Below are positions 4,415 to 57,562 of a DNA stretch of 64,000 bases, piece after piece. A model generated the notes under the pieces. The model was not told the origin of the DNA and made no database searches. It saw only the letters and a program-made list of their open reading frames with translations. The stretch is from NCBI GenBank assembly GCA_021791395.1, contig JAJYWR010000005.1, positions 21,259 through 85,258 on the forward strand. Direction: 5' to 3'. The DNA is from a bacterium (lineage in GTDB: Bacteria > Patescibacteriota > Minisyncoccia > UBA6257 > GWB1-50-10). A program made the position numbers and the translations under genes. How positions within the stretch are numbered: position 1 is the stretch's first letter; each line of letters starts with the position of its first letter.

Positions 4415-4984
4415 CTAGAGTTTCGGTGCATTTTCTGCCTCCAGCTTCGTTTTGAGCGTCGCAAGCGCCCGGCGGTGCCTGCTCCTCACGGTATTTTCCG
4501 AAGCACCTGTCACTTCCGCGATTTCCCGAAAGTTCAAATCGTCCTGGTAGTGGAGAATGAGGACCGACCGATGCGCAGGCGAAAGCTCCTGCAGGATTTT
4601 TTCCACCTCTTCCTTCGTCTCTTTGCGTTCCAGAGCGTCGTTCATGTTTTCGCCTTCATCCTTGATATCCATGATGGCATTTTCGCCGTCGTCGGTCTCA
4701 AGGTCGGAAAATTTCAATTCTTTCCGTTTGCGGAGATAATCAATAACTGCGTTCCGCGCGATTTGGAAAATCCAAACCTTGAACTTCCGCTTGGTGTCGA
4801 ACTTCTTCAAATGCTTCCAGACCCGGAAGAAGACATCTTGCGTCAGATCTTCCGCTTTTCCTTCGTCCTTAATGTATTGATGGATGAAATTGAAAATATG
4901 GTCGGCATACCGCTTCACAAGCACGTCGAAGAGATGCTCTTCCCCCTGAAGGCAGAGTTCCACCAGTTTTTCGTCCGACCCCAT
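4415..4984 (-). CDS. ECF-type RNA polymerase sigma-70 family factor
   Basis: The region 2 pattern is DLTQDVFFRVWKHL...WIFQIARNAVIDYLRKR. The region 4 HTH is LSPAHRSVLILHYQDDLNFREIAEVTGASENTVRSRHRRA. Confidence 0.9.
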   Translation of the reverse strand: MGSDEKLVELCLQGEEHLFDVLVKRYADHIFNFIHQYIKDEGKAEDLTQDVFFRVWKHLKKFDTKRKFKVWIFQIARNAVIDYLRKRKELKFSDLETDDGENAIMDIKDEGENMNDALERKETKEEVEKILQELSPAHRSVLILHYQDDLNFREIAEVTGASENTVRSRHRRALATLKTKLEAENAPKL

Positions 4985-4992
4985 GGAGGAGA

Positions 4993-5853
4993 TTATCGCA
5001 CGAATCGGAGATAAATACCCGACGGAACGATCCGGTTCGATGCTTGCTCACGGATCGCGATCTCACCGAATTCCGCGGACTTCGCTTCGGGGAATGATCC
5101 TTCGATCGCTTGAAGGAACGACTGCGGCGAGTACCCGGCGGCATACCCATTCAAGAGGAAGAATGATCCCGGTTTTTTCGAAAAGAGTTTCTGAAGGACG
5201 TCGAGAAGTTTCTGCATGTCCTCTTCGATCCGCCACACCTCATTTTCCGGCCCCCGGCCGAACGCCGGCGGATCGAGGATGATGCCTTCGTAGGCATGTC
5301 CGCGCCGCACTTCCCGCTCGGCGAACTTCAGAGCATCGTCGAGAAGCACGCGCATCGCGCCTTCCGGAACGCCGGAGAGTTTCGCGTTCTCTTTTGCCCA
5401 CGTATTCGATTGTTTCGATGCATCGATGTGCGTGACGTTCGCACCGTTTTTTGCCGCAACGATCGATGCGATGCCGGTATATCCGAAGAGATTCAGGACC
5501 TGCGGATCTTTGAGTCCGGCAACGCCCTCGGCAATCCATTCCCAATTCACCGCTTGCTCGGGAAAAATCCCGGTGTGCTTAAACGATGTAAGGCGCGCGG
5601 TGAATCGGACGTCCCGCCACTTCATTTCCCACGATTCCGGAATACCCTTGTTTTTCCACGCTCCCTTCCCACCGTTCCAGCTGAATTCCGCCTGCGCCTT
5701 TTTCCAGTCCGCTTCGCGGAGAAGTTTCCAGATCGCCTGCGTTTCCGGCCGTATCACGATATATTTGCCGTACCGCTCGAGTTTTTTATTGTCACCGGAA
5801 TCCAGGAGTTCGTAATCACTCCACGGCTCAGCGATGAGGTCAATGTTTTTCAT
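4993..5853 (-). CDS. class I SAM-dependent (rRNA) methyltransferase, RlmI/RlmK-like
   Basis: The ORF is trimmed to MKNIDLIAEPW, whose ATG overlaps the upstream stop (ATGA). The SAM motif is VLNLFGYTGIASIVAA and the catalytic motif is ILDPPAFGRG. Confidence 0.8.
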   Translation of the reverse strand: MKNIDLIAEPWSDYELLDSGDNKKLERYGKYIVIRPETQAIWKLLREADWKKAQAEFSWNGGKGAWKNKGIPESWEMKWRDVRFTARLTSFKHTGIFPEQAVNWEWIAEGVAGLKDPQVLNLFGYTGIASIVAAKNGANVTHIDASKQSNTWAKENAKLSGVPEGAMRVLLDDALKFAEREVRRGHAYEGIILDPPAFGRGPENEVWRIEEDMQKLLDVLQKLFSKKPGSFFLLNGYAAGYSPQSFLQAIEGSFPEAKSAEFGEIAIREQASNRIVPSGIYLRFVR

Positions 5854-6668
5854 TTTCGTTTCAAAACATTCTGATGCTTTGTGCTCCACGCATAGAGGAC
5901 GACGGCCGCGGAGACCGATGCGTTCAGCGATTCGCATTTCGGATCCATCGGGATCCTTAATTTCACATCGCAAAGCTCCAGGGTTTTCTCGCGGATCCCC
6001 CGCCCCTCGTTCCCGACGATGAAGAGCGTGGGGGCATCGAATACTTCATCCGCGATATTCGTGGAGCCATCCGCGACGAGGCCATAGGTTTTGAATCCCA
6101 TTTCCCTGAGGTCTTGGATCGCGTAGTTTACGTTGCCAATTGAGATCAAGGGTACCGAAAAGACCATGCCGGCCGAGACCTTCACCACGGCGCCCGTAAC
6201 CGGCGCTTGTCGATGCTCGGGGATCAGGACGCCCGACGCGCCGAAGGCGGCGGCCGACCGAATGATCGCCCCGACATTCTGCGGGTCGGTCAGTTCATCC
6301 AAGAGAACCAAAATCGTTTCTTCCGTCGGCTTCAAATTCTTTTTGAAAACGCTGAAATCAACGACGAGCGAAGAAGGGTCGACGAAGGCAATGACGCCTT
6401 GGTGCGACGCGTCTTTTCCGACGAGATGCGACGCGTCATTCGATTTCATGATGGAAAACGGAATCCCCCGTTTCGAGAGATTCTCCCGGAGTTCCCGCTC
6501 ATTCGCTTCGGGCGAGAGGAACACTTTCTTGACCGTGTGCGGCGCTTTGAGGAGCGCTTCTTCGAGCGCATGCCTGCCGTACATATAGATCTTTTCCTGA
6601 TTGTGCGAGGTATGCCCGTTGAATTTCTCCCGCCTTTCAAACTTTCTCGGCCTGAATTTCTTCTTCAT
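5850..6668 (-). CDS. rlmB: TrmH/SpoU-family RNA 2'-O-methyltransferase (RlmB-like)
   Basis: SpoU motifs are present: DELTDPQNVGAIIRSAAAFG, LFIVGNEGRGI and IPMDPKCESLNASVSAAVVLY. Confidence 0.8.
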   Translation of the reverse strand: MKKKFRPRKFERREKFNGHTSHNQEKIYMYGRHALEEALLKAPHTVKKVFLSPEANERELRENLSKRGIPFSIMKSNDASHLVGKDASHQGVIAFVDPSSLVVDFSVFKKNLKPTEETILVLLDELTDPQNVGAIIRSAAAFGASGVLIPEHRQAPVTGAVVKVSAGMVFSVPLISIGNVNYAIQDLREMGFKTYGLVADGSTNIADEVFDAPTLFIVGNEGRGIREKTLELCDVKLRIPMDPKCESLNASVSAAVVLYAWSTKHQNVLKRK

Positions 6669-7586: not shown

Positions 7587-8490
7587 GATGCCGGTCATCA
7601 TCGATACCGATCCGGGGCATGACGATGCCCTCGCCATCATGCTTCTCGAAAAATCCGGCGTGGCGGATATTAAGACCATCACCACGGTCGCCGGGAACAG
7701 TACAATCCAGAACGTGACCAATAATGCCCGGTACATACTCGATCTTTTAGATACTCCTACTCCTCTCTACTCGGGTTCTTCGGGACCGCTCAAGCGAAAA
7801 TTGGTACAGGCCGTTGTTCACGGCAAGAGTGGTCTCGATGGCGCCGAGATCAAAAAGCGTGAGAAATTGACGGGTGATGCCGTGGAGAAGATCGCATCGA
7901 TCATCCGGGAAAATCCCGGGAAGGTTTCGATTGTCGCCATTGGTCCGGAAACCAACTTAGCAAAAGCTTTCATCCGAGATCCGAAACTCCCCTCGCTCAT
8001 CAAACGACTGGTGATTATGGGCGGGGCAATTGACGTTCCCGGCAACAAAAACAGGGTCGCCGAATTCAATATCTTCGTCGACCCGGAAGCCGCGGATATT
8101 GTATGCAGGGCGGCAGTAAAAAAGGTGTTGATACCCCTCGACGTTTGCAACGATATCGTCTTACAAAGGACCGACTTTGAGAAATTGAGAAAAACTCCAC
8201 TCTCGGAATCCGTCTTAAAGATGATGGACAAATACATGTACGGACTGTCGGTCAACGAGAAAGTGAAGGGCGCATTGATGTACGATCCCCTCGCAGCCTA
8301 TTACCTCATCAATCCCTCAGCATACAAACTCCAATCCATGGATATTAAGATAGAAACGGATGGCGAGATCACGAGAGGAATGACCGTCGTGGAACGACGG
8401 ACATGGGCTCACAAGAACCCCAATGTATTGGTGGCGACCAAAATAGACGGGAGGGCATTCAAGAAAGATTTTCTAAAAATCCTTCAATAA
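7567..8490 (+). CDS. inosine/uridine-preferring nucleoside hydrolase family protein
   Basis: The N-terminal fingerprint is VIIDTDPGHDDALAI. It overlaps the HAD gene by 20 nt. Confidence 0.9.
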   Translation: MNKTKNRMPVIIDTDPGHDDALAIMLLEKSGVADIKTITTVAGNSTIQNVTNNARYILDLLDTPTPLYSGSSGPLKRKLVQAVVHGKSGLDGAEIKKREKLTGDAVEKIASIIRENPGKVSIVAIGPETNLAKAFIRDPKLPSLIKRLVIMGGAIDVPGNKNRVAEFNIFVDPEAADIVCRAAVKKVLIPLDVCNDIVLQRTDFEKLRKTPLSESVLKMMDKYMYGLSVNEKVKGALMYDPLAAYYLINPSAYKLQSMDIKIETDGEITRGMTVVERRTWAHKNPNVLVATKIDGRAFKKDFLKILQ

Positions 8491-9448
8491 CCCGGCGGAC
8501 GCCGGCGGCATCTTCCGCTTCCATGAGCTTCACGCGCAATTCTTTCGCGTCGTCGAAGCCGGAAACGTATGCCTTGAAGTGCTTCTTCATGACTTCGAAA
8601 TTCTTGATGCGGTTTTCCGTGTTGCTCTTATACAGTTTTTCGAAAAGCTCCGTATGCCGCACTAATCCTTCAAGCTTCTCCCGAAGATCGGGCACGCGGC
8701 CCGAGAAAAACCACGGATTCCCGAAAACGCCGCGCCCCACCATGACGCCGTCGAGGCCGGTTTCTTTCGCGCGCCGTTTCGCTTCGTCGAGCGATGCAAC
8801 GTCGCCGTTCCCCAAGAGGAGCGTCTTGGGCGCGATCCGGTCCCGCATCTCGACCAGCTTCGGCGCGAGGTCCCAGTGCGCCGGGACTTTCGACATTTCG
8901 CTCCGCGTCCGGAAGTGCATGGTCAAAGCCGCAATTCCCTCTTCGAGGAGCGCCGGCACCCACGTTTCAATCTCGTTCTTTCTGTATCCGATCCGGGTTT
9001 TGACCGAGATCGGCAGATCGGGAACGCTGCGCTTCGCGGCCCGGATGATTTCTTTCGCGAGCGCGGGATCTTTCATGAGTGCGGCTCCCCCGCCGGATTT
9101 TTCAACGCCCGCGTCAGGGCATCCCATGTTGATGTCCAAGCCGTCGAACCCGAGCTCCCGGATCAAGGGACTTATGCGCGCGAATAGTTCCGGCTTGCCG
9201 CCGAAGATCTGCGCAACAATCGGATGTTCCCGCTTGTCGTACCAGAGGTCGGGCAGAAGTTTTTCGCGGCCCTTCGAGAGGAGTCCCTCGGATGAAACGA
9301 ATTCAGTCCAGAAAACATCCGGTCTGCCCAAGTCCGCGAACATCTGCCGGAATGCCGCGTCCGTCACGTTCGCCATGGGTGCGATCGCCATAATCGGTTT
9401 CTTGAGTTTTTTCCAAAACCCCAAATTCGGTTCAGTGTCTCGCTTCAT
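8459..9448 (-). CDS. dus: tRNA-dihydrouridine synthase
   Basis: It carries MAIAPMANVTDAAFRQM and GFDGLDINMGCP (catalytic Cys). The ORF 8459..9490 is trimmed to MKRDTEPN, whose ATG lies inside a 16-bp palindrome. Confidence 0.85.
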   Translation of the reverse strand: MKRDTEPNLGFWKKLKKPIMAIAPMANVTDAAFRQMFADLGRPDVFWTEFVSSEGLLSKGREKLLPDLWYDKREHPIVAQIFGGKPELFARISPLIRELGFDGLDINMGCPDAGVEKSGGGAALMKDPALAKEIIRAAKRSVPDLPISVKTRIGYRKNEIETWVPALLEEGIAALTMHFRTRSEMSKVPAHWDLAPKLVEMRDRIAPKTLLLGNGDVASLDEAKRRAKETGLDGVMVGRGVFGNPWFFSGRVPDLREKLEGLVRHTELFEKLYKSNTENRIKNFEVMKKHFKAYVSGFDDAKELRVKLMEAEDAAGVRRVIEGFLENLS

Positions 9449-9553
9449 ATATATGAAGACAGCGTACCAGAGATGGTACGCTGAGTTCAAATCGCGGCAC
9501 GGATTTATATGGAGCCTTGCCTGTATAAAAATTGGTCAGAAAAAAAACTGCAA

Positions 9554-10621
9554 TTAAACTTGAGGTGCGTTTTCTTGGAAATATCTATTCAAAACCTTCA
9601 CAAATTCTCTCGTGTCCAAAAAATAATTTGGATAAGCCCTATGCAATTCTCTTGTTGTCTCCGCAGAAACGAGAACAATATCTCTATCCTCTTTGTTTTT
9701 TATCATTCTTTCTTCATACTTTGAATACTCAGAATTTGCCAGTTCTTCTTGTGATTTCTTATACGCCGTAATACTTAACTCTCTTGTTGTTAGATCCAGA
9801 TTTAAAAGATAAAAATCATACTTAGCACCCTTCTCTTTTTCGAAATCCTCAATAACCCTATGAATCTTTGTCCATTCGTTCATCTTTTTTACAACCTTTA
9901 ATTTTCTTGCCAGTACCCGTATCTGCTCTCGCAATTCTTGTTTATTTATAGGAGTTTCTGGGACTATAGGCGTTTCTTCCATATTCGCAAATGCAGAACT
10001 AACTAACTTAAAAAAATCCATCCAGTCTTTCTGCCCTTCATTCGATTTTATTGCCTGCCTAGTAAAATGATCCACTGTTTCCACTGCAGTCGCCCAATAA
10101 TGCTGCAACTTTGTCCTTATTTGTATCTCAATTAATAAACCATTATAATTCTCATTTTTATCGCTGAAGTATTTATAAACTAAGTGGACGCTTCTGTAAC
10201 CATCTCTCTTAGGACTTTGAATATGGTCATTTATTTTTGCCAATCCGTGTTTAATCCTGCTTTTTTTATATTTTTCAACAAGATTCTTTACATCACCAAC
10301 ACTTTGCAAAACTGCTCTGCATCCGCCAACATCTTGCATTTGAGACATCTTCATTGTACTGGTTTGTCCACGTCTAAGTTTTTTAATAATAGACGAGATG
10401 CGTTTAAGACGACGCACGACAAGGGCACTTGAATCAACTTGTTTGGATACGTGCTTAAGCCTCACGGCAAATATGTGGAGTGGAAAACTATGCGAAGATC
10501 TCCAATTACTCAAAACGTCCATTGCTTGCCCATACGATGACTGAGAATTATTTACTGCGACGAGAATTTTCCCCGCTTTATTTATCTGATTTTTTGTATA
10601 TTTTAATTTAGTCCATTCCAT
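9554..10621 (-). CDS. RelA/SpoT-homologue synthetase-domain protein (alarmone-synthetase fold only) with a ~150-aa C-terminal extension
   Basis: Synthetase motifs are RLKRISSIIKK, DVGGCR, GYRSVHLVY and EIQIRTKLQHYWA. There is no HD hydrolase, TGS or ACT region. GC is markedly lower than in the flanking genes. Confidence 0.85.
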   Translation of the reverse strand: MEWTKLKYTKNQINKAGKILVAVNNSQSSYGQAMDVLSNWRSSHSFPLHIFAVRLKHVSKQVDSSALVVRRLKRISSIIKKLRRGQTSTMKMSQMQDVGGCRAVLQSVGDVKNLVEKYKKSRIKHGLAKINDHIQSPKRDGYRSVHLVYKYFSDKNENYNGLLIEIQIRTKLQHYWATAVETVDHFTRQAIKSNEGQKDWMDFFKLVSSAFANMEETPIVPETPINKQELREQIRVLARKLKVVKKMNEWTKIHRVIEDFEKEKGAKYDFYLLNLDLTTRELSITAYKKSQEELANSEYSKYEERMIKNKEDRDIVLVSAETTRELHRAYPNYFLDTREFVKVLNRYFQENAPQV

Positions 10622-10777
10622 AACCGTTTCATTTACTATAGGAAGATTAGAACTTGTTGTCGGAGTTAATCTACCTCACCGCCCTCAATTCCGCTTTCTT
10701 GCCTTCCGGAGCTTTTGCGAAGGAGGGCGCACCGCTGGGGAGAGATCTTACCGTCACGGTCTTCCGTGGCGGGAAGA

Positions 10778-11227
10778 TCATTTTCCGATATACATCCGGA
10801 TCCCTTCCAGAATGCCGGATGTGAAATATTCAGCCGGATCAATTTTCGCCAAGTCCAACCATTGATAGCCGGCGTGCTCGCTGCTGATCTTCAATTCTCC
10901 GCCGCCATAGTGGGCCTCAAAGAAAAGATACAGCACATGGATGTCTTTCCCCGAGCTGGTCATCGAAGCCGGGATCAAATGCCTGCCCACGGCGACCGGG
11001 TTCTGCTGGATTTGGAACTCGACATTCCCAATTTCTTCGACTACTTCTCTCGCGATGATGTTTGAAAAATCGGTTTTAAATTCATCTGTATCGATCCGGC
11101 CGCCCGGCAGGTCATAGAAACCGGCATAGCTGCCATTATGAACGGCCTTCAAAGCGAGTATCTTGCCCTCGCTGTTTTTCAGTAAAAGCTTCAGCGATAC
11201 TTGATAAAAATCCTTTTCTTTTTTCAT
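10778..11227 (-). CDS. NUDIX hydrolase
   Basis: The NUDIX box is GGRIDTDEFKTDFSNIIAREVVEEIG. The ORF 10778..11347 is trimmed to MKKEKDFYQV because the extension would read through the tRNA-Ser gene. Confidence 0.85.
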   Translation of the reverse strand: MKKEKDFYQVSLKLLLKNSEGKILALKAVHNGSYAGFYDLPGGRIDTDEFKTDFSNIIAREVVEEIGNVEFQIQQNPVAVGRHLIPASMTSSGKDIHVLYLFFEAHYGGGELKISSEHAGYQWLDLAKIDPAEYFTSGILEGIRMYIGK

Positions 11228-11244
11228 GGCGATTCTCCTGTTTG

Positions 11245-11331
11245 CGGAGGCGGAAGGATTCGAACCTTCGATGCCCTTGCGGGCATAACGGTTTTCAAGA
11301 CCGTCCGTTTCAACCGCTCGCGCACGCCTCC
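11245..11331 (-). tRNA. tRNA-Ser (anticodon UGA)
   Basis: Hand-folded: acceptor GGAGGCG/CGCCTCC, anticodon arm ACGGT-CTTGAAA-ACCGT, long variable arm ATGCCC-GCAA-GGGCAT, T arm GAAGG-TTCGAAT-CCTTC. CCA is not encoded. Confidence 0.9.
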
Positions 11332-11378
11332 CAGTGCTGGGAATCATAAACCAGCACAGAGCTTATATCAAGGAATTT

Positions 11379-18503: not shown

Positions 18504-20891
18504 TTAGATGACGAGGTTGATAATTCTCCCTTTCACATATACCACTTTTTTGATTTTGGCGCTTCCGAGGGCGGCAGAAACGGTCTCAAGTTTCATCGCT
18601 GCTTCCTTCACCGCTCCTTCTTCCGCGTTGGGGGGGACTATAATGCTCCCCCGCCGCTTGCCGTTCACCTGGGCGACAACCTCAACCACCTCTTCTTTCA
18701 AGAGCGACGGATCGTACGATGGCCACGATTCGAAGTGCACCGACTTCTTGTTCTTCAGAAGATACCACAATTCATCCGCGAGGTGCGGTGCGAACGGCGC
18801 GAGAATTTTCAAAAAATCGCTCCAGACGCCCGCCGGAATGATCACTTCGTCGCTTGCGGCATTCATAAAGATCATCATGGAGCTTATGGCTGTATGGAAC
18901 GCCATTTTTTCAATGTCTTCCCCGACTTTTTTCACCGTCGCTGCAAGAAGGCGCTCGAGCTTTTCGTTCTTCGTTTTTCCGATCTCCTTTTCGTGCGCGG
19001 TGTCCCACGTGCGCCGCAAGAACCGTTTTACTCCTTCGATCCCCTTTGCATCCCAGGCAATCGCCCGATCGAAAGGACCCATGAACATTTCATAGACCCG
19101 CGCAACATCGGCGCCGTATGCCCTGACGATGGTATCGGGATTCACGGCGTTGCCGCGCGACTTCGACATCTTGACACCCCTCTCTCCGAGGATCATTCCT
19201 TGCGCCGTCCGTTTCCGGTACGGTTCGCTTGTCGGAACCAATCCTTGATCGTGGAGAAAGATGTTCCAAAACCGCGAATAGAGCAAATGGAGCGTCACGT
19301 GCTCCATGCCGCCGTTGTACCAATCGATCGGCATCCAGTACTTCAATTTTTTCATCGAGGCGAACTCTTTCGCATTCTTCGGATCGGCATACCGCAAGAA
19401 GTACCAGCTCGATCCGGCCCAATTCGGCATCGTGTCCGTTTCGCGCTTCGCGACCCCTTTGCACTTCGGGCATTTGACGTTCACGAAACTCACGACGGAA
19501 GCCAAAGGCGACTCGCCGTCGTCGCGCGGCTTATAATTCTTGACGGGCGGGAGGACAACCGGCAGATCTTTTTCCGGCACGGGGACATAGCCGCATTTTT
19601 CGCAGTGAATGATCGGAATCGGCTCGCCCCAATACCTTTGGCGCGAAAAGACCCAGTCGCGCAGGTGGTAGTTCACCGTCTTCTTTCCGCCGACAAATTT
19701 TGTGATCTCCGCTTTCGCCCGCTCTGAATCCATCCCGTCAAACTTCCTGGAATTCACGAGGTTTCCCTTTCCTTCCCAAAGTTCGCCCGGCGTTCCTCCC
19801 GAAACAACGTGGATGATCGGCAGATTAAATTTCTTCGCGAACGAGAAGTCGCGCGCATCGTGCGCGGGAACCGCCATAATCGCTCCCGTGCCGTACTCGG
19901 CAAGGACGTAGTCCGCAATCCACACGGGAATTTCTTCGCCGGTCGCCGGATTCACTGCTTTCACGCCCTTGAGCTCCACACCAGTTTTTTCCCGATCCTC
20001 CGCCGTCCGTTCTTCCTCCGTTTCTTTCCGTGCTGTTTTTACATACGCCTCAACCTCATTGAAGTTCGAGATCTTATCCTTCAATTTCTCCACGAGCTCA
20101 TGTTCCGGCGCGAGGACCATATACGTTGCGCCAAATAATGTGTCGGGTCTGGTTGTAAATACCTTAATTCGAAATTCAGAATTCGAAATTCGAAATTCCA
20201 GTTCCGCCCCCTCCGATCGTCCGATCCAGTTCACCTGCTGTGCTTTGATTTCGTCCAGATAATCCACCTTCTCCAAACCCTTCAGGAGCTTGTCGGCGTA
20301 TGCGGTAATTTTGAGCATCCACTGCGCCTTCTTCCGCTTTTCGACTTCCGCGCCGCACCGCTCGCATTTTCCCGCAATCACTTCTTCGTTCGCGAGACCA
20401 ACTTTGTCATTCGGGCACCAGTTGATATCAATCTCCGCTTTATACGCCAAACCTTTTTTGAAAAATTGAAGGAAGAGCCACTGTGTCCATTTATAGTATT
20501 TCGGATCAGTCGTGTTCACTTCGCGGCTCCAATCGAACGAAAATCCCAAACCCTTGAGCTGCTTACGGAAGTTTTCGGTATTCTTCTTCGTCGCGACACG
20601 CGGATCGACGCCCGTTTTGATGGCATAGTTCTCCGTCGGGAGCCCAAACGCGTCCCATCCGATCGGATAGAGCACGTTATACCCTTCCATCCGCCGCTTG
20701 CGAGATACGATATCCATGGCCGTAAGGCTCCGGATATGGCCGATGTGGAGCCCCTGGCCGGACGGGTACGGGAATTCGATGAGCGAATACCACTTTTTCT
20801 TCTTGGAAAAATCGACGGCTTTCCCGATGTCTTGTTTTTCCCATTCTTTCTGCCACTTTTTCTCTATCTTTTTGAAATCGTACTTCGCCAT
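18504..20891 (-). CDS. leuS: leucine--tRNA ligase
   Basis: HIGH is present as PYPSGQGLHIGH, the editing motif is TTRPDTLFGATYMVLAPEH, and KMSKS is VKMSKSRGN. Confidence 0.97.
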   Translation of the reverse strand: MAKYDFKKIEKKWQKEWEKQDIGKAVDFSKKKKWYSLIEFPYPSGQGLHIGHIRSLTAMDIVSRKRRMEGYNVLYPIGWDAFGLPTENYAIKTGVDPRVATKKNTENFRKQLKGLGFSFDWSREVNTTDPKYYKWTQWLFLQFFKKGLAYKAEIDINWCPNDKVGLANEEVIAGKCERCGAEVEKRKKAQWMLKITAYADKLLKGLEKVDYLDEIKAQQVNWIGRSEGAELEFRISNSEFRIKVFTTRPDTLFGATYMVLAPEHELVEKLKDKISNFNEVEAYVKTARKETEEERTAEDREKTGVELKGVKAVNPATGEEIPVWIADYVLAEYGTGAIMAVPAHDARDFSFAKKFNLPIIHVVSGGTPGELWEGKGNLVNSRKFDGMDSERAKAEITKFVGGKKTVNYHLRDWVFSRQRYWGEPIPIIHCEKCGYVPVPEKDLPVVLPPVKNYKPRDDGESPLASVVSFVNVKCPKCKGVAKRETDTMPNWAGSSWYFLRYADPKNAKEFASMKKLKYWMPIDWYNGGMEHVTLHLLYSRFWNIFLHDQGLVPTSEPYRKRTAQGMILGERGVKMSKSRGNAVNPDTIVRAYGADVARVYEMFMGPFDRAIAWDAKGIEGVKRFLRRTWDTAHEKEIGKTKNEKLERLLAATVKKVGEDIEKMAFHTAISSMMIFMNAASDEVIIPAGVWSDFLKILAPFAPHLADELWYLLKNKKSVHFESWPSYDPSLLKEEVVEVVAQVNGKRRGSIIVPPNAEEGAVKEAAMKLETVSAALGSAKIKKVVYVKGRIINLVI
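20164..20198 (-). repeat. in-frame heptamer array (GAATTTC-type, 5 units) inside leuS
   Basis: The coding strand reads GAATTTC GAATTTC GAATTCT GAATTTC GAATTAA, translated as EFRISNSEFRIK. Confidence 0.9.
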
Positions 20892-33493: not shown

Positions 33494-33898
33494 TTAATAA
33501 ATAAGAATACCGAGCAAGCGATCGATGCTGAGGGACCCGCCGCCAAGAAGTACGAGAAGCACGACCGATGCGAGGATTAAAAGATCGAATTCGTAACCGC
33601 CGACGAAACCGCTTTTCCGCTTCACGGCCGCAAGAATCACAATGAATTCAATGACGAAGAATGCTGCAATGATTTGAGTGAAAAACCCCGCAAAGAGTGC
33701 CAAGCCGCCGACGACCTCGAGAATCGCAATGAGCGTCCCCCACCAGCGCCCCGGCTTGAACCCCATGCCCGCGAAGCTCTCGCCCGTCGCCTTCAGATCC
33801 TTCATTTTGAGCAAACCGTGACGAATGAAGATAAGCCCCAAAACCACCCTCAAGAACAAGATCCCCCAATCACCCCAAATCAACAACAGTTGAATCAT
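33494..33898 (-). CDS. DoxX family membrane protein
   Basis: It has four TM helices and the segment LRVVLGLIFIRHGLLK. Confidence 0.75.
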   Translation of the reverse strand: MIQLLLIWGDWGILFLRVVLGLIFIRHGLLKMKDLKATGESFAGMGFKPGRWWGTLIAILEVVGGLALFAGFFTQIIAAFFVIEFIVILAAVKRKSGFVGGYEFDLLILASVVLLVLLGGGSLSIDRLLGILIY

Positions 33899-33966
33899 AG
33901 GGACAGTATACCCCTCCCCTTGAGCGATTTCCAGTTCCTTGATACCTTCTATACTACTGGCTTGCT

Positions 33967-35073
33967 ATGAAAATTCTATCGATAGAAACAAGCTGCGATG
34001 AGACGTCAATCGCCTCAGTGGAAGCTTCCGGCGGCATCAGAGCTCCCCGCTTTAAGGTGTTGCAGAACATCGTTTCGTCGCAAATAGCGCTTCACGCCCC
34101 TTTCGGCGGCGTGGTTCCCAACATTGCCAAGCGAGAGCACCTCAAAAATCTACCCATCATCTTTAGGCAAATTTTTGTAAATCCTAAATCAAAAATCCTC
34201 AATCCTAAACAAACACAAAATACTGAGTACAAAATACTAAGCACAAAAGTGGACGTGGTAGCAGTAACAGTGGGTCCGGGTCTTGAGCCGGCTCTTTGGA
34301 CCGGCGTCAATTTTGCAAAGGAAATCCATAAAAACCATTTCCCAAAAGCGAAGCTCATCGGTGTGAACCACATGGAGGGACACCTTTACAGCTTTCTATT
34401 GCCACAGAAAACTCAATTTCCAATTTCCAATTCTCAATTTTCAAAAACGAAAATTTTTCCGGCAGTCGGCCTCGTGGTCTCCGGGGGGCATACCATACTT
34501 CTCCTCATGAAATCCCTCACGGAGTGGAAAAAACTCGGCGAAACACGGGATGATGCCGTTGGAGAAGCATTCGATAAAGTGGCGCGAATGCTCGGTCTCC
34601 CCTATCCCGGCGGACCCGAGATCCAAAGAGCGGCCGCTCCCGGAGACCCGTCATCCGTGAATTTCCCCCGCCCGATGATGAAAGATAAAAACTATGACTT
34701 CAGCTTCTCTGGTCTCAAAACATCAGTACTCTACTATATAAGAGACCACAAAGAGCAATCAAAGAATAAAAATTTCATCGAGGACGTTGCAGCGAGCTTC
34801 CAGGCGGCGGCTGTTGAAACGCTCGTTTATAAAACGGCGCGCGCCGTGCAAGAATTCAAGGCAAAATCTATCATCCTTGCCGGCGGCGTAGCCGCAAACC
34901 AATCGCTCCGTGAGACGCTGGTAAAAACAAGCAAGGAGCTCGGCGTACACTTTTTTGCGCCGCCTATGGCATACAACACCGACAATGCCGCAATGATCGC
35001 CGCCGCCGCATATATTCAAACACTCAAGAAAAAGAACCGCCGTATCACGGCCCAAGCGAATTTGAATCTTTGA
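33967..35073 (+). CDS. tsaD: tRNA N6-adenosine threonylcarbamoyltransferase
   Basis: It carries ILSIETSCDETS, GGVVPNIAKREH, VTVGPGLEPAL, HMEGH and VVSGGHT. It also contains two AT-rich low-complexity inserts. Confidence 0.9.
   Translation: MKILSIETSCDETSIASVEASGGIRAPRFKVLQNIVSSQIALHAPFGGVVPNIAKREHLKNLPIIFRQIFVNPKSKILNPKQTQNTEYKILSTKVDVVAVTVGPGLEPALWTGVNFAKEIHKNHFPKAKLIGVNHMEGHLYSFLLPQKTQFPISNSQFSKTKIFPAVGLVVSGGHTILLLMKSLTEWKKLGETRDDAVGEAFDKVARMLGLPYPGGPEIQRAAAPGDPSSVNFPRPMMKDKNYDFSFSGLKTSVLYYIRDHKEQSKNKNFIEDVAASFQAAAVETLVYKTARAVQEFKAKSIILAGGVAANQSLRETLVKTSKELGVHFFAPPMAYNTDNAAMIAAAAYIQTLKKKNRRITAQANLNL
34178..34248 (+). repeat. in-frame AT-rich module pair inside tsaD (AAATCC-type heptamers, then an AAACAC..AAAATAC module)
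   Basis: The sequence is TAAATCC TAAATCA AAAATCC TCAATCC TAAACAA, then ACACAAAATACTGAGTACAAAATACTAAGCAC. It is translated as VNPKSKILNPKQTQNTEYKILSTK. Confidence 0.9.
34414..34455 (+). repeat. in-frame heptamer array (CAATTTC-type, 6 units) inside tsaD
   Basis: The units are CAATTTC CAATTTC CAATTCT CAATTTT CAAAAAC GAAAATT, translated as QFPISNSQFSKTKIF. Confidence 0.9.
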
Positions 35074-35110
35074 CCTGAAAAGCTTTATTTTAAGGGGAAA
35101 ATCGGCCATA

Positions 35111-37336
35111 ATGGAACACATGAACGCCGACTTTTCGAAGCCGTACGACCCGAAAGCGACCGAGTCCATGATCTACCAACAATGGCTCGATTCCGGCTAT
35201 TTCAATCCGGACAATTTAAAAATTAAAAATCCAAAAATCCAAAATTATGTAGTGTACATGCCCCTCCCGAACGTGACAGGAACACTCCACATGGGGCACG
35301 CTTTGGACAATACCGGATCGGATATTTTGGTCCGGTACTACCGCATGAAGGGCTTCCGGACACTCTGGCTTCCCGGAACCGATCATGCCGGCATCGCGAC
35401 GCAATACAAAGTTGAAAAAGAATTGCGCAAGGAGGGCGCCTCCCGGTTCGAGCTGGGACGAGAGAAATTTATCGAGCGCGTCTGGAAGTGGAAAGAAGAG
35501 TACGGCGGCATTATCATCGATCAACTCAAAAAACTGGGCGCCTCGGCCGATTGGTCGCGCCTTCGGTTCACGATGGACCCGGATTATACCAAGGATGTCC
35601 TCTCGGCTTTCGTTCATTACTACGAAAAAGGCCTCATTTATCGCGGCGAGCGCACGGTCAACTGGTGCCCGCGCTGTGGTACCAGCCTTTCCGAACTCGA
35701 GCTCGAGCATCAGGAAGAAAAAGGGTCACTGTGGTACATCAAATACCCGCTCATCGATACCAAACACGAAATACCTAATACAAAATACATTATTGTAGCC
35801 ACAACGCGCCCCGAGACCATGCTCGGCGACACTGCCGTCGCCGTGAATCCGAACGACAAGCGGTATGCGAAATTCATCGGGAAAACCATACGGCTCCCCC
35901 TCACCAATCGGGAGATACCGATCGTCGCCGACTTGAAGATAGATCCCGGATTCGGAACGGGGGCCGTGAAGGTCACGCCGGCGCACGATATCCTTGATTT
36001 TGAGATCGGCGGGCGGCACAAGCTCGCATCGATTCAAGTCATCGATGAACGGGGGAAAATGAACGCGAACGCCGGATCGTATGCCGGCATGAAAACGGAA
36101 GAGGCCCGGAAAGCGATCGTCGAACGACTGGCATCCGAGGGGCTGCTCGAAAAAGAGGAGTCTTATGTGCACAACATTACCATCTGCTATCGCTGCGGAC
36201 ACGTCATCGAGCCGATCCCCTCAATGCAATGGTTCCTTCAGATGGACAAGCTTGCCGCAAACGCCTTGAAGACGGTTCAATCTGGTAAAGTGGACATTCA
36301 GCCAGAAAATTTTCAAAAAATCTATTTCGATTGGTTAGAAAACATACGTGATTGGACGATCTCACGCCAATTGTGGTGGGGGCACCAGCTTCCTGTTTGG
36401 TTTTGTAAAAACCAAACAGGAAGCTCCAATTCTCAATTTCTAATTTCTAATAAAAATTTATCAGCCGAAGACTTCGTGGTATCCGTGGAAAAACCGGCAA
36501 CGTGTCCAATTTGTAAAAATTGCGACATGATCAAATCCCCCGACGTTCTCGATACCTGGTTCTCGTCGGCTCTGTGGCCCTTTGCCGGTCTTTCAGAATC
36601 CGACCGGAAAAATTATTATCCCGGCAACTTTGTTTCGAATGCACGCGACATTTTAAATCTCTGGGATGCCCGCATGATATTTTCCGGACTTGAATTTATG
36701 GGAAAGCCGCCTTTCCAAAATGTTTTCGTCCACGGTACCATCCTCACAAAAGACGGCAAGCGCATGTCGAAAAGCTTGGGAACCGGTATTGATCCGTTGA
36801 AATACATCGACCAATACGGCGCGGATGCGACGCGCTTCGCCGTCATCTGGCAGGCAAACGGTCAAGACATCCACTGGGACGAAGCGGCGGTCATGGCCGG
36901 CAGAAAATTTTGCAACAAGATATGGAACGCATCCCGCTTCGTCTTGGAACGAAGCGGAAACTCGAAATTCGACCTGCCTCTGCAGACAGAAACTCAAAAT
37001 TCATTGACCCCGCAGACCGAGGCCGATAAAAAAATACTGGCGAAACTCGCAGAAGTGAAAAAACAAACCGAGCGATACATTGAAACATTCGAATTTGCAA
37101 AGGCGCTCCAAAATCTTTACGACTTCTTTTGGCACGATTTCTGCGATATTTATCTCGAAGAATCAAAAGGACAGATCGCTGATGAGAAAACGGGGTCTTC
37201 CACGCAAGCGATTTTGCGGAATGCCCTTGTTGAGTCTCTTAAAATGCTCCATCCGTTCATGCCGTTCGTAACTGAAGCCGTCTATCAAAACCTCGACGAG
37301 CGGAGCAATCAATTCCTCATGACAACCGAATGGTGA
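35111..37336 (+). CDS. valS: valine--tRNA ligase (741 aa; appears to lack the long C-terminal coiled-coil of many bacterial ValRS)
   Basis: It carries PNVTGTLHMGHA, the editing motif ATTRPETMLGDTAVAVNP, and KMSKSLGT. Confidence 0.95.
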   Translation: MEHMNADFSKPYDPKATESMIYQQWLDSGYFNPDNLKIKNPKIQNYVVYMPLPNVTGTLHMGHALDNTGSDILVRYYRMKGFRTLWLPGTDHAGIATQYKVEKELRKEGASRFELGREKFIERVWKWKEEYGGIIIDQLKKLGASADWSRLRFTMDPDYTKDVLSAFVHYYEKGLIYRGERTVNWCPRCGTSLSELELEHQEEKGSLWYIKYPLIDTKHEIPNTKYIIVATTRPETMLGDTAVAVNPNDKRYAKFIGKTIRLPLTNREIPIVADLKIDPGFGTGAVKVTPAHDILDFEIGGRHKLASIQVIDERGKMNANAGSYAGMKTEEARKAIVERLASEGLLEKEESYVHNITICYRCGHVIEPIPSMQWFLQMDKLAANALKTVQSGKVDIQPENFQKIYFDWLENIRDWTISRQLWWGHQLPVWFCKNQTGSSNSQFLISNKNLSAEDFVVSVEKPATCPICKNCDMIKSPDVLDTWFSSALWPFAGLSESDRKNYYPGNFVSNARDILNLWDARMIFSGLEFMGKPPFQNVFVHGTILTKDGKRMSKSLGTGIDPLKYIDQYGADATRFAVIWQANGQDIHWDEAAVMAGRKFCNKIWNASRFVLERSGNSKFDLPLQTETQNSLTPQTEADKKILAKLAEVKKQTERYIETFEFAKALQNLYDFFWHDFCDIYLEESKGQIADEKTGSSTQAILRNALVESLKMLHPFMPFVTEAVYQNLDERSNQFLMTTEW
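35213..35247 (+). repeat. in-frame A-rich array inside valS (AAAAATCC x2 core)
   Basis: The sequence is AATTTAAAAATTAAAAATCCAAAAATCCAAAATTA, translated as NLKIKNPKIQNY. It lies just before the HIGH region. Confidence 0.85.
35761..35793 (+). repeat. in-frame AAACAC..AAATAC module inside valS
   Basis: The sequence CAAACACGAAATACCTAATACAAAATAC matches tsaD 34210..34237 at 24/28 positions. It is translated as TKHEIPNTKY, just before ATTRPET. Confidence 0.85.
36427..36461 (+). repeat. in-frame heptamer array (CAATTTC/TAATTTC-type) inside valS
   Basis: The units are CAATTCT CAATTTC TAATTTC TAATAAA AATTTAT, translated as SNSQFLISNKNL. It shares the 15-mer TCCAATTCTCAATTT with tsaD. Confidence 0.9.
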
Positions 37337-55679: not shown

Positions 55680-56771
55680 CTACTTCTTGAGCTTGAGATT
55701 AATTCTCCGTTCAGTCGATTTTACGCTTTCTATTATAAAGGAATATTGTTCTCCTTGCGAGAGCTCTTTTTTCATTTCCGGTACACCGCCGAATTCAGTA
55801 ACCCTGATAATACCCTGGAAACCGTGATCCAGGTTCACGACGGCACCGAATTGATTCAAAGAATAAACCGTTCCCACAACTTCGTCTCCGTCCTTGAAAT
55901 ATTCTGAAACCTTCACCCACGGATCTTCTTTCAGAGCCTTGAGCGACAGCGAAATCCTGCCGTCTTTGATGTCGACAATTTTCGCCTTTACGACTTCATC
56001 AACCTTCAAAACTTCTTTGGGGTTTTCGATGATCCTCCAGTCGATTTCGGAAACGTGCACGAAACCTTCGACGGCCGGATTATCGGTAAACCGGAGGAAC
56101 GCGCCGAAATCAGCAACGCCCGAAATAATCCCCTCGATGACTTGCCCGACAGCGTAGTTCTTTGCGAGATCACGGGCAGAAAGTTCCTGCACCGCCTTCT
56201 CGGAAACGATGAGCTTCGAGGTTCGGGGGTTTACATCGATGATCTTTACTTCAAGCTCGGAGCCCACGAGGAGCTGGAGTGACTGGAAAATCTTCGATTT
56301 TTCCTCCTCGCTTACTTTCGGATAATGATCTTGTGAGAGCTGAGAAACCGGCAGGAATGCGGAGAGTCCTTTTATTTCCGCCATAAGCCCTCCCTTATTG
56401 AATCCGGTAATTTTTACTTTTAATATCTCTTCCTTTTCTTTCAATTCTTGGACTTCGGTCCACGATTTCTGTTTATCTGCTTCGGAAAGCGACAGTTCTA
56501 CGAGTCCTTCGTCGTTGTCGATATCAATGACTTTTGCATGAACTGCGTCTCCGGTATTCAAATTCTTTATATATTCCTTCGCATTTTGAAGTTCGCCGCG
56601 GTACACCGCGCCGGTCCCGTATTTCCCAAGATCAATGAAAAGCTTCGCTGATCCCTTTTCCAGGATTTTTCCTTCCACAAGATCGCCGACTCGGAGCGTC
56701 GGCAAAAACGAGTGGTTCGTCTTCAAAATTTGCCCGATAAGCCCTCCCCCGTTTTTTATATTGATCGTCAT
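55680..56771 (-). CDS. rpsA: 30S ribosomal protein S1-like protein (four S1 domains)
   Basis: It has four repeated S1 OB-fold motifs (GDLVEGKI.., GDAVHAKV.., GSELEVKI.., GQVIEGII.., GDEVVGTV..). Its stop abuts the ftsH start. Confidence 0.8.
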   Translation of the reverse strand: MTINIKNGGGLIGQILKTNHSFLPTLRVGDLVEGKILEKGSAKLFIDLGKYGTGAVYRGELQNAKEYIKNLNTGDAVHAKVIDIDNDEGLVELSLSEADKQKSWTEVQELKEKEEILKVKITGFNKGGLMAEIKGLSAFLPVSQLSQDHYPKVSEEEKSKIFQSLQLLVGSELEVKIIDVNPRTSKLIVSEKAVQELSARDLAKNYAVGQVIEGIISGVADFGAFLRFTDNPAVEGFVHVSEIDWRIIENPKEVLKVDEVVKAKIVDIKDGRISLSLKALKEDPWVKVSEYFKDGDEVVGTVYSLNQFGAVVNLDHGFQGIIRVTEFGGVPEMKKELSQGEQYSFIIESVKSTERRINLKLKK

Positions 56772-56853
56772 GATGATTGTTGCTCAAGCGCCGTTGATAG
56801 GGCCCCAAGCGAAGAAATGATAGCAGGAACGACCAAGGATGTCCACCTTGCAG

Positions 56854-56986
56854 AAAACCCAAAATCCAAATTCCAAATGCCACATCAGACTTCGATAATC
56901 AAACATCAAAGTGTCTTTCATTTTTTCATTCGGATTTTGATATTGATTGGGCATTTGTCATTTGAGCCTTGTCATTTTAAAATAGG
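56854..56986. repeat. paired 7-nt-periodic arrays in the divergent rpsA / 56990 promoter region
   Basis: The left array is AAAACCC AAAATCC AAATTCC AAATGCC. The right array has T-rich units of opposite polarity (..GATTTTG ATATTGA TTGGGCA TTTGTCA TTTGAGC CTTGTCA TTTT..). Confidence 0.75.
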
Positions 56987-56989
56987 GAC

Positions 56990-57562
56990 ATGGTAATCAC
57001 ACGCCAAGGAGACGGGTACTTCAAACTGCAATCCGGTGAAAAAGCGGTGCTTATCGACCCAGACAATCAGCGATCGTACAAGGGATCGATTCTCATCGTC
57101 GCAACAACGAAACCTTCCTTAACCGAGCCCGAGGATGGCGGACCGTTCTTTATCGATGGACAAGGAGAATATGACGTTTCCGAAATACGGATCGAGGGCA
57201 AAACCGCCGAGCACGAAGGGGAGGGGGTCGAAAAAACGGCCTACCGGATCGTTTTCGACGATATTGTGATCGGTGTTTTAGGTCCCGTTAAAAAGGAGCC
57301 GGACCCGAAGGTTGTGGAAGTTCTCCAAGACTGCGATATCCTCATTTTGCCGGGAGGAGAAAAACCATACCTCAATGCTTCTGCCGTCGCCAAGATGATA
57401 CGTCAAACCGAACCAGGCATCATCATTCCCTCTTTCACTAAAAACCCGAAAGAACTTTTAAAAGAGTTGGGCCAAGAAAACGGCAAACCGGAAGAAAAAT
57501 TGACCTTGAAGAAAAAAGATATTTCTCCCAAGGCAATGACCGTCGTGTGGCTTACCGCTTAA
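56990..57562 (+). CDS. hypothetical protein, possibly a degenerate MBL-fold (UPF0173-like) protein
   Basis: The overall pattern (KAVLIDP..., DILILPGG) resembles the family, but I saw no HxHxDH motif. Confidence 0.35.
   Translation: MVITRQGDGYFKLQSGEKAVLIDPDNQRSYKGSILIVATTKPSLTEPEDGGPFFIDGQGEYDVSEIRIEGKTAEHEGEGVEKTAYRIVFDDIVIGVLGPVKKEPDPKVVEVLQDCDILILPGGEKPYLNASAVAKMIRQTEPGIIIPSFTKNPKELLKELGQENGKPEEKLTLKKKDISPKAMTVVWLTA

Follow-up and report, generated by a model that had tools for sequence, protein, structure and literature searches.

In-frame heptanucleotide arrays in tsaD: a candidate family of passenger repeats in Patescibacteria genomes

Rickettsia palindromic elements (RPEs), described by Ogata and colleagues in 2000, are said to be palindromes of 100-150 bp that fall into families with a defined consensus and lie in frame within genes. 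Repeats built from 7-nt units are represented by the short tandemly repeated repetitive (STRR) heptamers of cyanobacteria, which are comparable heptamer repeats. In PMC4679880, which cites Mrazek 2007, heptanucleotides are given as the most abundant long simple-sequence repeats (LSSRs) in prokaryotes and are attributed to polymerase slippage, and PMC4692102 also mentions heptanucleotide LSSRs. Direct repeats of the heptamer TAACTGA occur in Beggiatoaceae, Cyanobacteria and Bacteroidetes, with S1, Csp or CsrA as proposed binders (PMC4679880), and phase-variable heptanucleotide tracts include the AAGACTC repeats of E. coli K1 neuO (PMC13001214) and those of the H. influenzae hmw promoters (PMC8262952). 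In this study, we analysed a 64-kb stretch of a patescibacterial contig (hereafter the window), in which the gene tsaD carries two AT-rich in-frame inserts. We consider these inserts to be in-frame copies or derivatives of a family of AT-rich, heptanucleotide-iterated repeats that populates the genomes of Patescibacteria (the Candidate Phyla Radiation, CPR) as selfish or neutral passengers, a reading to which we assign a probability of roughly 55%. In the literature we found no description of in-frame repeats in CPR, of the peptides FPISNSQF and NSKFQI or of the DNA strings of the arrays, and the heptamer-array family is apparently undescribed.

The host gene occupies positions 33967..35073 (plus strand) and encodes a protein of 368 aa, which matches PF00814 and aligns to Thermotoga maritima TsaD (6nak) with E = 1.6e-72. 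It combines the ASKHA-fold PF00814 domain, the HxxxH metal motif and the conserved Asp of the TsaD/Kae1/Qri7 group; the metal/catalytic residues H135 and H139 (HMEGH) and D339 are invariant across 120 TsaD homologues, and an AlphaFold2 model matches E. coli and Aquifex aeolicus TsaD with TMt 0.87-0.88 (Foldseek). The closest named relatives belong to Patescibacteria/Parcubacteria. A HMMER alignment with T. maritima TsaD places 17 extra residues (4+2+11) between REHLKNLP and VDVVAVT (site 1) and 12 (8+4) between HMEGH and VVSGGHT (site 2), in line with the roughly 15 and 11 that an initial annotation of this DNA had estimated relative to E. coli TsaD.

Insert 1 opens at 34178..34209 (+) with TAAATCC TAAATCA AAAATCC TCAATCC TAAA, which encodes NPKSKILNPK and for which Tandem Repeats Finder (TRF) reports a period of 7 with 4.6 copies of the unit TAAATCC (34178-34209); the heptamers and the peptide VNPKSKILNPKQ quoted in the initial annotation are exact. 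It continues at 34210..34248 (+) with a 14-nt (2x7) array, CACAAAATACTGAG/TACAAAATACTAAG, encoding QTQNTEYKILSTK (TRF, 34214-34248: period 14, or 2x7, with 2.5 copies). Insert 2 (34414..34458, +) consists of CAATTTC CAATTTC CAATTCT CAATTTT followed by CAAAAAC GAAAATT, a single inverted unit, and encodes QFPISNSQFSKTKIF (TRF, 34414-34444: period 7, 4.4 copies of CAATTTC). These three parts had been named modules II, III and I, respectively, and taken for discrete types; they are instead flavours of one continuum of A/T-rich heptamer arrays whose unit varies by lineage. The GC content is 0.268 in insert 1 and 0.238 in insert 2 as against 0.511 in the remainder of tsaD, with G making up merely 2-4% of the inserts, and fewer than 1% of same-length windows across the 64 kb reach this AT-richness. 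In-frame TAA is avoided, the TAAATCC array of insert 1 having AAA exactly at the unit concerned. No array has more than 5 units, and these are imperfect (73-93% matches, apart from a single 8-nt overlap row at 100%).

The inserts are not private to tsaD, as the same heptamer-array family is found in valS, leuS and one spacer of the window, which holds at least 8 arrays in total. Six period-7 arrays were observed in the window vs 0.3 in shuffles, an approximately 20-fold excess, with periods 5, 8, 10 and 11 at background. The 28-mer CAAACACAAAATACTGAGTACAAAATAC (34210-34237) is identical to valS 35761-35788 at 24 of 28 positions, exactly as first counted; for the adjoining 28-mer at 34214-34241, 4 bases downstream, the best match in 100 Markov shuffles of the window was 20/28. 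Short AT-rich repeats are error-prone in short-read assemblies, and one contig in our material (L113, discussed below) is a palindromic artefact. Nevertheless, the exact 368-aa protein is found on 5 contigs, its cluster has members in NCBI, JGI and ENA, and the frame is kept in every relative, all of which, together with the 20-fold excess of period 7, leaves chance low-complexity sequence or an assembly artefact with a negligible share of the probability.

Among relatives, we compared nine syntenic loci with the gene order recO-GT2-doxX/tsaD-valS-prsW, and we surveyed TsaD lengths in the 120 homologues, all from Patescibacteria, over 24 intervals. Five intervals are length-variable (s.d. 8.1, 6.5, 6.0, 2.6 and 2.2), both insert sites among them; the remaining 19 have an s.d. 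of 0.0 (17 intervals) or 0.3-1.1 (2 intervals). Lengths at site 1 (P63..A99) are bimodal, 14-19 aa vs 24-43 aa, with 35 aa in the window protein and a median of 19, and the array form and the short form (...SPKPHSLxPD...) alternate between sister taxa on a tree made from conserved columns. Site 2 is 19 aa long in the window protein (median 17, range 8-40), and by the standard of its clade insert 2 scarcely counts as an insertion. The tsaD inserts of relatives are also heptamer arrays with lineage-specific units (AAAATTC, AAATTCG, AAAATCC and AAAATTA; in more distant CPR, ATTCGTA, AGTAGAC and AACCTAN), which encode peptides such as NSKFEIRNSKF, NSKFQIPNSK and ISNDKFLISN, and the reading frame is kept by the arrays in all 10 tsaD and 7 valS sequences compared. 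Array density is highest in the eight syntenic relatives, at 47.6 per 100 kb, as against 13.5 in loci labelled CPR and 2.6 in other bacteria. An ancestral segment of conserved length and sequence and of ordinary composition in relatives, the alternative envisaged in the initial annotation, is not what we find. A third AT-rich patch of tsaD, absent from that annotation (34747..34776, +; HKEQSKNKNF; GC 0.27), adds 5 aa relative to T. maritima at a third length hot spot, where two relatives carry clear arrays (L087 4745-4785, DSKFEIHNSKF; L089 4009-4040, DLKLEIQNSKF).

The history of insert 1 can be followed in L001, which has an orthologous copy identical at 46 of 72 nt and 10 of 24 aa in a protein that is 79% identical as a whole. 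Compared with the L001 copy, insert 1 has a lower GC content (0.28 vs 0.43) and a higher period-7 self-identity (0.60 vs 0.38), a divergence that fits decay after acquisition. Since the orthologous copy in L001 is GC-richer and decayed, insert 1 is inherited and drifting, not freshly acquired. At the insert-2 site, a GC-richer palindromic module encoding PSFAKASEGKQ (CCCTCCTTCGCTAAAGCTTCGGAGGGCAAG) lies in frame in L083, L087 (~4440-4500), P0013 and P0019 and is a second in-frame repeat family; GC-rich palindromes resembling it are nested in AT-rich intergenic elements of L157/L169, L165 and L132.

Array sites change far faster than the remaining gene, as is evident from near-identical strains. 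L085 and L082 are 97-99% identical over 4.3 kb, with their differences concentrated at tsaD site 1, the valS N-terminal array and valS site 2, where they are 63-84% identical with indels. At tsaD site 1 the pair has an array allele vs a short allele; the valS N-terminal arrays are equal in length, but each of the four units has a different periodic dinucleotide in the two strains (CGAAATT x4 vs AAAAATT-type x4). Similarly, P0027 and P0037 are 2 residues apart outside site 2 and have unrelated sequences at site 2, with a difference of 20 aa. The presence/absence polymorphism that the initial annotation had proposed to look for thus exists: among sister taxa, presence and absence are seen at both insert sites, and array and short alleles also separate strains 97-99% identical. 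The swapped tsaD stretch takes in flanking codons, and because its L085 version is ~90% identical to the L089 allele, it points to allele replacement by recombination. A difference in unit number was seen in one case (21 nt, or 3 units, in window vs L083 valS); the strain pairs show whole-array replacement or concerted base change, and neither clean ends nor a target-site duplication was found in the filled/empty comparison of L085 with L082. The earlier proposal of repeated acquisition into permissive loops is borne out as regards permissive sites and repeated turnover, but turnover also includes allele swaps and overwriting in leuS, and insert 1 is inherited.

Genic arrays are always in frame and stop-free, and they lie at structurally permissive loops or hairpins. 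In the AlphaFold model of TsaD (predicted local distance difference test, pLDDT, 85; predicted TM-score, pTM, 0.85), just three stretches have a pLDDT under 50, namely residues 74-89 in insert 1, residues 148-157 in insert 2 and the C-terminus. Because this low confidence sits on an otherwise confident fold, both inserts look like flexible surface loops in the model, as the initial annotation had supposed. Intein or intron-like excision was rejected, as the arrays are in frame, stop-free, without splicing motifs and modelled as loops. Insert 1 begins directly after helix 51-70 (alpha1). In TsaD, this helix and alpha2 make up the four-helix bundle with TsaB (PMC6009658), and alpha1 also has a part in trapping the anticodon loop of the tRNA (PMC13276492); insert 2 comes after the helix bearing the metal-binding HMEGH.

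This placement raises the idea that the inserts are an adaptive protein feature, namely Lys/Asn/Ser-rich loops that strengthen substrate or partner binding or compensate for the reduced complexes of CPR. It would suit insert 1, which follows a helix that contributes to holding the anticodon loop where TsaB and TsaD meet, and it would suit the x-F-x-I-x-N-S heptad, which is compatible with beta-hairpins and replaces a real hairpin in LeuRS. The hosts are moreover mostly nucleic-acid enzymes (TsaD, ValRS, LeuRS, GltX, the CCA enzyme, LepA and LigA), although this bias is expected because CPR genomes consist largely of such housekeeping genes. We consider adaptive loops improbable, given that strains 97-99% identical have unrelated sequence or no insert at the same site, that the peptide identity of orthologous inserts is far under that of the remaining protein, that pLDDT is below 50 in both inserts and that the same DNA is found in spacers and antisense.

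Beyond the orthologous sites, block copying from one coding site to another occurs. The arms of the arrays are ~3-5 units long (28-33 nt), and sometimes two inverted arms surround a spacer. L089 valS contains two 94-nt blocks of this build (5776-5870 and 6499-6593), identical at 93 of 94 positions and in frame at two loops, the hairpin before ATTRPET and an insert of the connective-polypeptide (CP) region; each has a non-repetitive spacer between two inverted heptamer arms, and the block ends are mutually inverted (AATTTTGAAT ... ATTCAAAATT). In L117, two identical 121-nt intergenic copies have unrelated left flanks that break off exactly at the array; no inverted right end is present on these two copies. 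Duplicated blocks that include a non-repetitive spacer argue against the view that the arrays are local simple-sequence repeats, born by in-situ slippage of a 7-nt seed in tolerant loops and alike through shared constraints (AT bias, no stops, hydrophilic or beta-hairpin peptides), with no copying between sites. That view draws on heptanucleotides being the commonest long repeat class of this kind in prokaryotes, on the own unit of each lineage at orthologous sites and on the window and L083 valS differing by exactly 21 nt, or 3 units; concerted change of the periodic position could, in addition, come from contraction and re-expansion. However, identical irregular arrays (unit 3 being AATTCT) with the same unforced bases are present in unrelated genes and spacers, and the arrays stop at ~3-5 units where slippage would leave them open-ended. 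Slippage by one unit would be lethal in an essential gene, there is no repeat on which a jump of 3 units from a 1-unit remnant could misalign, and the inserts have a GC content of 0.25 within a genome of 0.50. Purely local slippage therefore seems to us unlikely.

The dispersal of the family was followed further in a metagenome scan with the pattern AATTTCNAATTTCNAATTCTNAATTT, which returned at least 120 stretches, 83 matches being analysed. Eighteen of the 83 carry C at all three free positions and so have the tsaD insert-2 sequence AATTTCCAATTTCCAATTCTCAATTT. Among the matches listed, pattern-matching arrays, mostly all-C, lie in LeuRS (at the hairpin, as in the window), LepA, LigA, GltX and the CCA/polyA-polymerase gene, and the contigs bearing genic matches range in GC content from 0.30 to 0.57; a related array of AAC type lies antisense in a PurL-type gene. 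A further 39 of the 83 matches have T at all three free positions and stops in three frames on both strands, and none of the 39 is coding. AT-rich intergenic elements of roughly 110-120 nt have the T version as their invariant left end, and among the matches listed the T-type 31-mer is invariant over 36 loci. The family is thus present both within many housekeeping genes and as dispersed intergenic copies with the array as their boundary. With Candidatus Levybacteria as one T-type host, the family extends over both Microgenomates and Parcubacteria. Many T-type elements bear an inverted heptamer arm that stops just before an ATG, and in some CPR genomes T-type elements are suggested to make up 5' leaders or to take their place.

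L113 (4776 nt) had the look of a transposon with array termini, but the entire contig reads as a perfect palindrome around its midpoint, which marks it as a hairpin artefact of assembly, and its two inverted element copies are therefore meaningless. Carriage by phages was rejected, with 1 match in 2.9 million viral contigs. As a separate observation, the right inverted arm of the T-type elements in L092, L098, L107 and L108 reaches an ATG start codon or stops no more than a few bases from one (...GAAAATTATG).

The intergenic elements also invite an explanation in terms of cis-acting nucleic-acid signals, either iterated sites for a conserved DNA- or RNA-binding protein of CPR or an mRNA element. 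Purifying selection would preserve such signals even within genes, and the protein inserts would be a by-product. An invariant T-type 31-mer with an inverted arm often just before the start codon recalls the TAACTGA repeats, one window array lies upstream of rpsA, and the same 26-31-mer is found in genomes of GC 0.30-0.57 with AT-rich codons throughout. Likewise, the window, L088 and L089 share the same insert-2 DNA over 32-36 nt, the first 32 nt of the window's insert being unchanged in the latter two, despite flanking codons that differ at 50-80% of positions. These sites are nonetheless unlikely to hold a required signal, because in close relatives the array is absent, swapped for unrelated units or decayed at the same site, and both orientations relative to the host gene occur. 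No sigma-70-like promoters or intrinsic terminators were found on the arrays, and an Rfam search of 33800-36600 gave just one sub-threshold microRNA match (36387-36425; 22.6 bits vs a gathering score of 75), which abuts the start of the valS array of the module I type. Secondary structure is likewise not significant, with a fold z-score vs shuffles of -0.25 for insert 2 and of -3.2, from local stems only, for insert 1. On balance, we find a cis-acting role rather improbable.

In our preferred reading, of passenger repeats, polymerase slippage or template switching, known to favour 7-nt units, would give rise to the arrays and keep their units alike. Spread between sites would proceed by ectopic copying or gene conversion, aided by an AATT-type core every 7 nt, and spread between strains by homologous recombination of entire loop alleles. 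Selection would act as a filter only, demanding a length that is a multiple of 3, the lack of in-frame TAA/TAG/TGA and a solvent-exposed location, and arrays once fixed would drift by point mutation towards the composition of the host. The TsaD inserts would accordingly be passenger loops without required function, by analogy with the RPEs in protein-coding genes of Rickettsia.

Several points weigh against this reading. Neither near the arrays nor in the window's low-GC parts did we find a transposase, a recombinase or a reverse transcriptase, and target-site duplications and fixed element ends were not seen. Simple slippage would hardly yield in-frame change in an essential gene, each step of one unit being a frameshift. 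The inserts of the window are one-armed and fold no better than shuffles, and the dyad elements do so only marginally (z -2.8 for the two-arm block of L089; -1.4, -1.1 and +0.3 for intergenic ones). A neutral passenger is expected to drift, so the identity of insert-2 DNA described above needs recent copying or nucleotide-level constraint. As 23 bases are fixed in the scan pattern, recurrence of the pattern is ascertained, and the independent evidence from the scan lies in free positions, extensions and flanks only. L085, on which part of the strain comparison depends, is a Logan contig and may be a chimeric assembly. Furthermore, the conservation of AT-rich codons in GC-rich genomes, the joint alteration of all units at the periodic position and the limitation of the arms to ~3-5 units are poorly explained, and the passenger reading does not account for the period of 7, for conservation at the level of nucleotides or for the mechanism. 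It is conceivable, though doubtful, that the arrays are products or recognition sites of an undescribed, superphylum-wide system of Patescibacteria, either an activity that writes ~30-nt cassettes of 7-nt iterations or a protein that binds heptamer iterons. Such a writing or binding system would explain a fixed period with lineage-specific units, concerted unit change, limited arm length and identity across GC 0.30-0.57.

Outside tsaD, most arrays of the window lie in the neighbouring valS (all on the plus strand). Its N-terminal array (35213..35248) has AAAAATT/AAAATCC units and encodes NLKIKNPKIQNY; six of seven aligned sequences have an array at this site (the exception is L084), with a different unit in each. 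At the hairpin before ATTRPET, the array of the module III type (35756..35791; DTKHEIPNTKYI) has no counterpart in L083, L084, L086 and L087, and in L089 the site holds a 94-nt block. A third valS array, of the module I type (36422..36463), reads CAATTCT CAATTTC TAATTTC TAAT (SSNSQFLISNKNLS), and L083 valS has the same array plus 21 nt (3 units) of inverted arm. A fourth, at 36956..37003, is a decayed array of the (AAATTCG) type (GNSKFDLPLQTETQNS), for which relatives have NSKFEIRNSKL or NSKWEIRNLKL. The array flavours TAAATCC/AAAATCC, AAAATAC and CAATTTC follow the same 5'-to-3' order in tsaD and valS (34178-34458; 35213-36463), which may be coincidence (1 in 6).

The array of leuS (gene 18504..20891, minus strand) lies at 20163..20207 (-), reads GAATTTC GAATTTC GAATTCT GAATTTC GAATT and encodes EFRISNSEFRI. 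Its build is that of tsaD insert 2, except that G replaces C at all periodic positions. In the solved LeuRS sequences of T. thermophilus and E. coli, the hairpin before TTRPDT can be aligned with EFRISNSEFRI with no gap and, the length being unchanged, the leuS array is not an insertion. Set against the widespread C-type LeuRS array, the G at each periodic position amounts to a concerted change. The intergenic array (56849..56893, +; AAAACCC AAAATCC AAATTCC AAATGCC) lies upstream of rpsA (ribosomal protein S1, 55680..56771, -) and has an inverted partner at ~56931-56966 (GGGCATTTG... GGATTTT), and the fold of this region (56849-56966) is not significant (z -0.9); it also lies upstream of a divergent ORF at 56990.

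Among other features, the tsaD-valS spacer is an insertion hot spot. In L082 (5051-6345) it holds a 1.3-kb insert with a 220-aa open reading frame (ORF) without Pfam match, which is missing in L085 (3418-3457), and in L089 (4425-4991) a PaaX_M-like ORF unrelated to that of L082. The ORFs in the low-GC parts of the window encode a RelA/SpoT-domain protein, a NUDIX protein, TruB, a trypsin-like peptidase, FtsK, two RNase H-like proteins, FtsH and S1, and one further low-GC ORF (8403-9554) matches no Pfam family. The stretch at 9557-11347 (GC 0.43-0.46), with the RelA/SpoT-domain ORF (small alarmone synthetase-like) and the NUDIX ORF, is possibly an acquired island.

If the passenger reading is true, Patescibacteria own a superphylum-wide, heptanucleotide-built counterpart of the in-frame selfish repeats of Rickettsia. 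The arrays would then be the fastest-changing parts of the conserved markers tsaD, valS, leuS, lepA, ligA and gltX, and they could distort alignments, phylogenies, average nucleotide identity, strain tracking and the assembly of CPR genomes. They would equally offer natural strain markers and a map of those loops in essential enzymes that tolerate arbitrary insertions. The puzzle they would pose, made up of the period of 7, concerted unit change and nucleotide conservation, is one that existing metagenomes suffice to address.

How, then, do the arrays relate to the systems described so far? Like the heptanucleotide LSSRs, they consist of head-to-tail 7-nt units beyond chance (TRF; 6 vs 0.3), are over-represented relative to other non-triplet periods and have slippage as a proposed origin. 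Known LSSRs, however, are mostly intergenic or in contingency genes, non-triplet periods being avoided in coding DNA, whereas the arrays described here are in frame in essential genes, short (3-5 units), imperfect and present as near-identical copies at scattered places. The phase-variable tracts share the 7-nt unit in or beside a coding region, and in both cases multiples of three units keep the frame, each triple forming a heptad of 7 residues. In contrast to these long, perfect tracts with on/off switching, our arrays are short and imperfect, reside in essential genes and are in frame in every sequence examined; with at most 5 imperfect units and the frame kept in 10 tsaD and 7 valS sequences, they do not form a phase-variable contingency locus.

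The TAACTGA repeats come in 2-6 copies with stops in three frames, are mostly intergenic and often lie just upstream of a start codon, in all of which the T-type relatives resemble them. Occasional reverse copies are found inside ORFs, and the distribution of the TAACTGA repeats suggests horizontal spread with no known vehicle (PMC4679880); the T-type relatives likewise show a horizontal distribution that lacks an explanation. The in-ORF copies of Beggiatoa, however, are at protein termini or in hypothetical proteins, unlike the internal loops of conserved enzymes occupied here, and the dyad architecture with two arms found in this study is not described for the TAACTGA repeats. The arrays of the window do not belong to this type, as they are intragenic and made of TAAATCC, CAATTTC and AAAATAC units; an end directly ahead of an ATG is seen only for the T-type relatives in other CPR.

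With MITEs, or miniature inverted-repeat transposable elements, and REP-like sequences, the arrays have in common that they are small, non-autonomous, dispersed and AT-rich, sometimes with inverted arms, and that other palindromes are nested within them. They are not MITEs, as no fixed terminal inverted repeats, target-site duplication or cognate transposase was identified. Palindromic amphipathic repeat coding elements (PARCELs) and the inserts of Plasmodium proteins also bring translated dyad repeat DNA or compositionally biased sequence into loops of conserved proteins. Nevertheless, PARCELs are tandem repeats of 25 (amphipathic) residues in surface or unknown ORFs, as opposed to one short array of 7 nt or 7 aa per site, and Plasmodium inserts track the AT bias of their own genome, whereas the inserts here have a GC content of 0.25 in a genome of 0.50. 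PARCELs and TIGR arrays were both rejected for mismatch of period or context.

Compared by description, the arrays share with the RPEs that they are short repeats of non-coding type, apparently dispersed in a reduced genome, that they lie in frame in essential or housekeeping genes at exposed positions and leave function intact, and that they are patchy among close relatives and decay once inserted, and their in-frame placement in conserved genes at exposed, non-essential positions agrees with that of the RPEs. They differ in that RPEs are not internally periodic, whereas the arrays are 7-nt iterations with ~30-nt arms, often one-armed, and with a unit that varies by lineage; furthermore, hairpin stability is not significant here, and the arrays span a whole superphylum with hosts of unrelated phyla. 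Because they lack the defining stable palindrome of 100-150 bp, the arrays are not members of the RPEs. By analogy, however, the RPEs are their closest functional counterpart, as selfish DNA that would persist in frame within essential genes.

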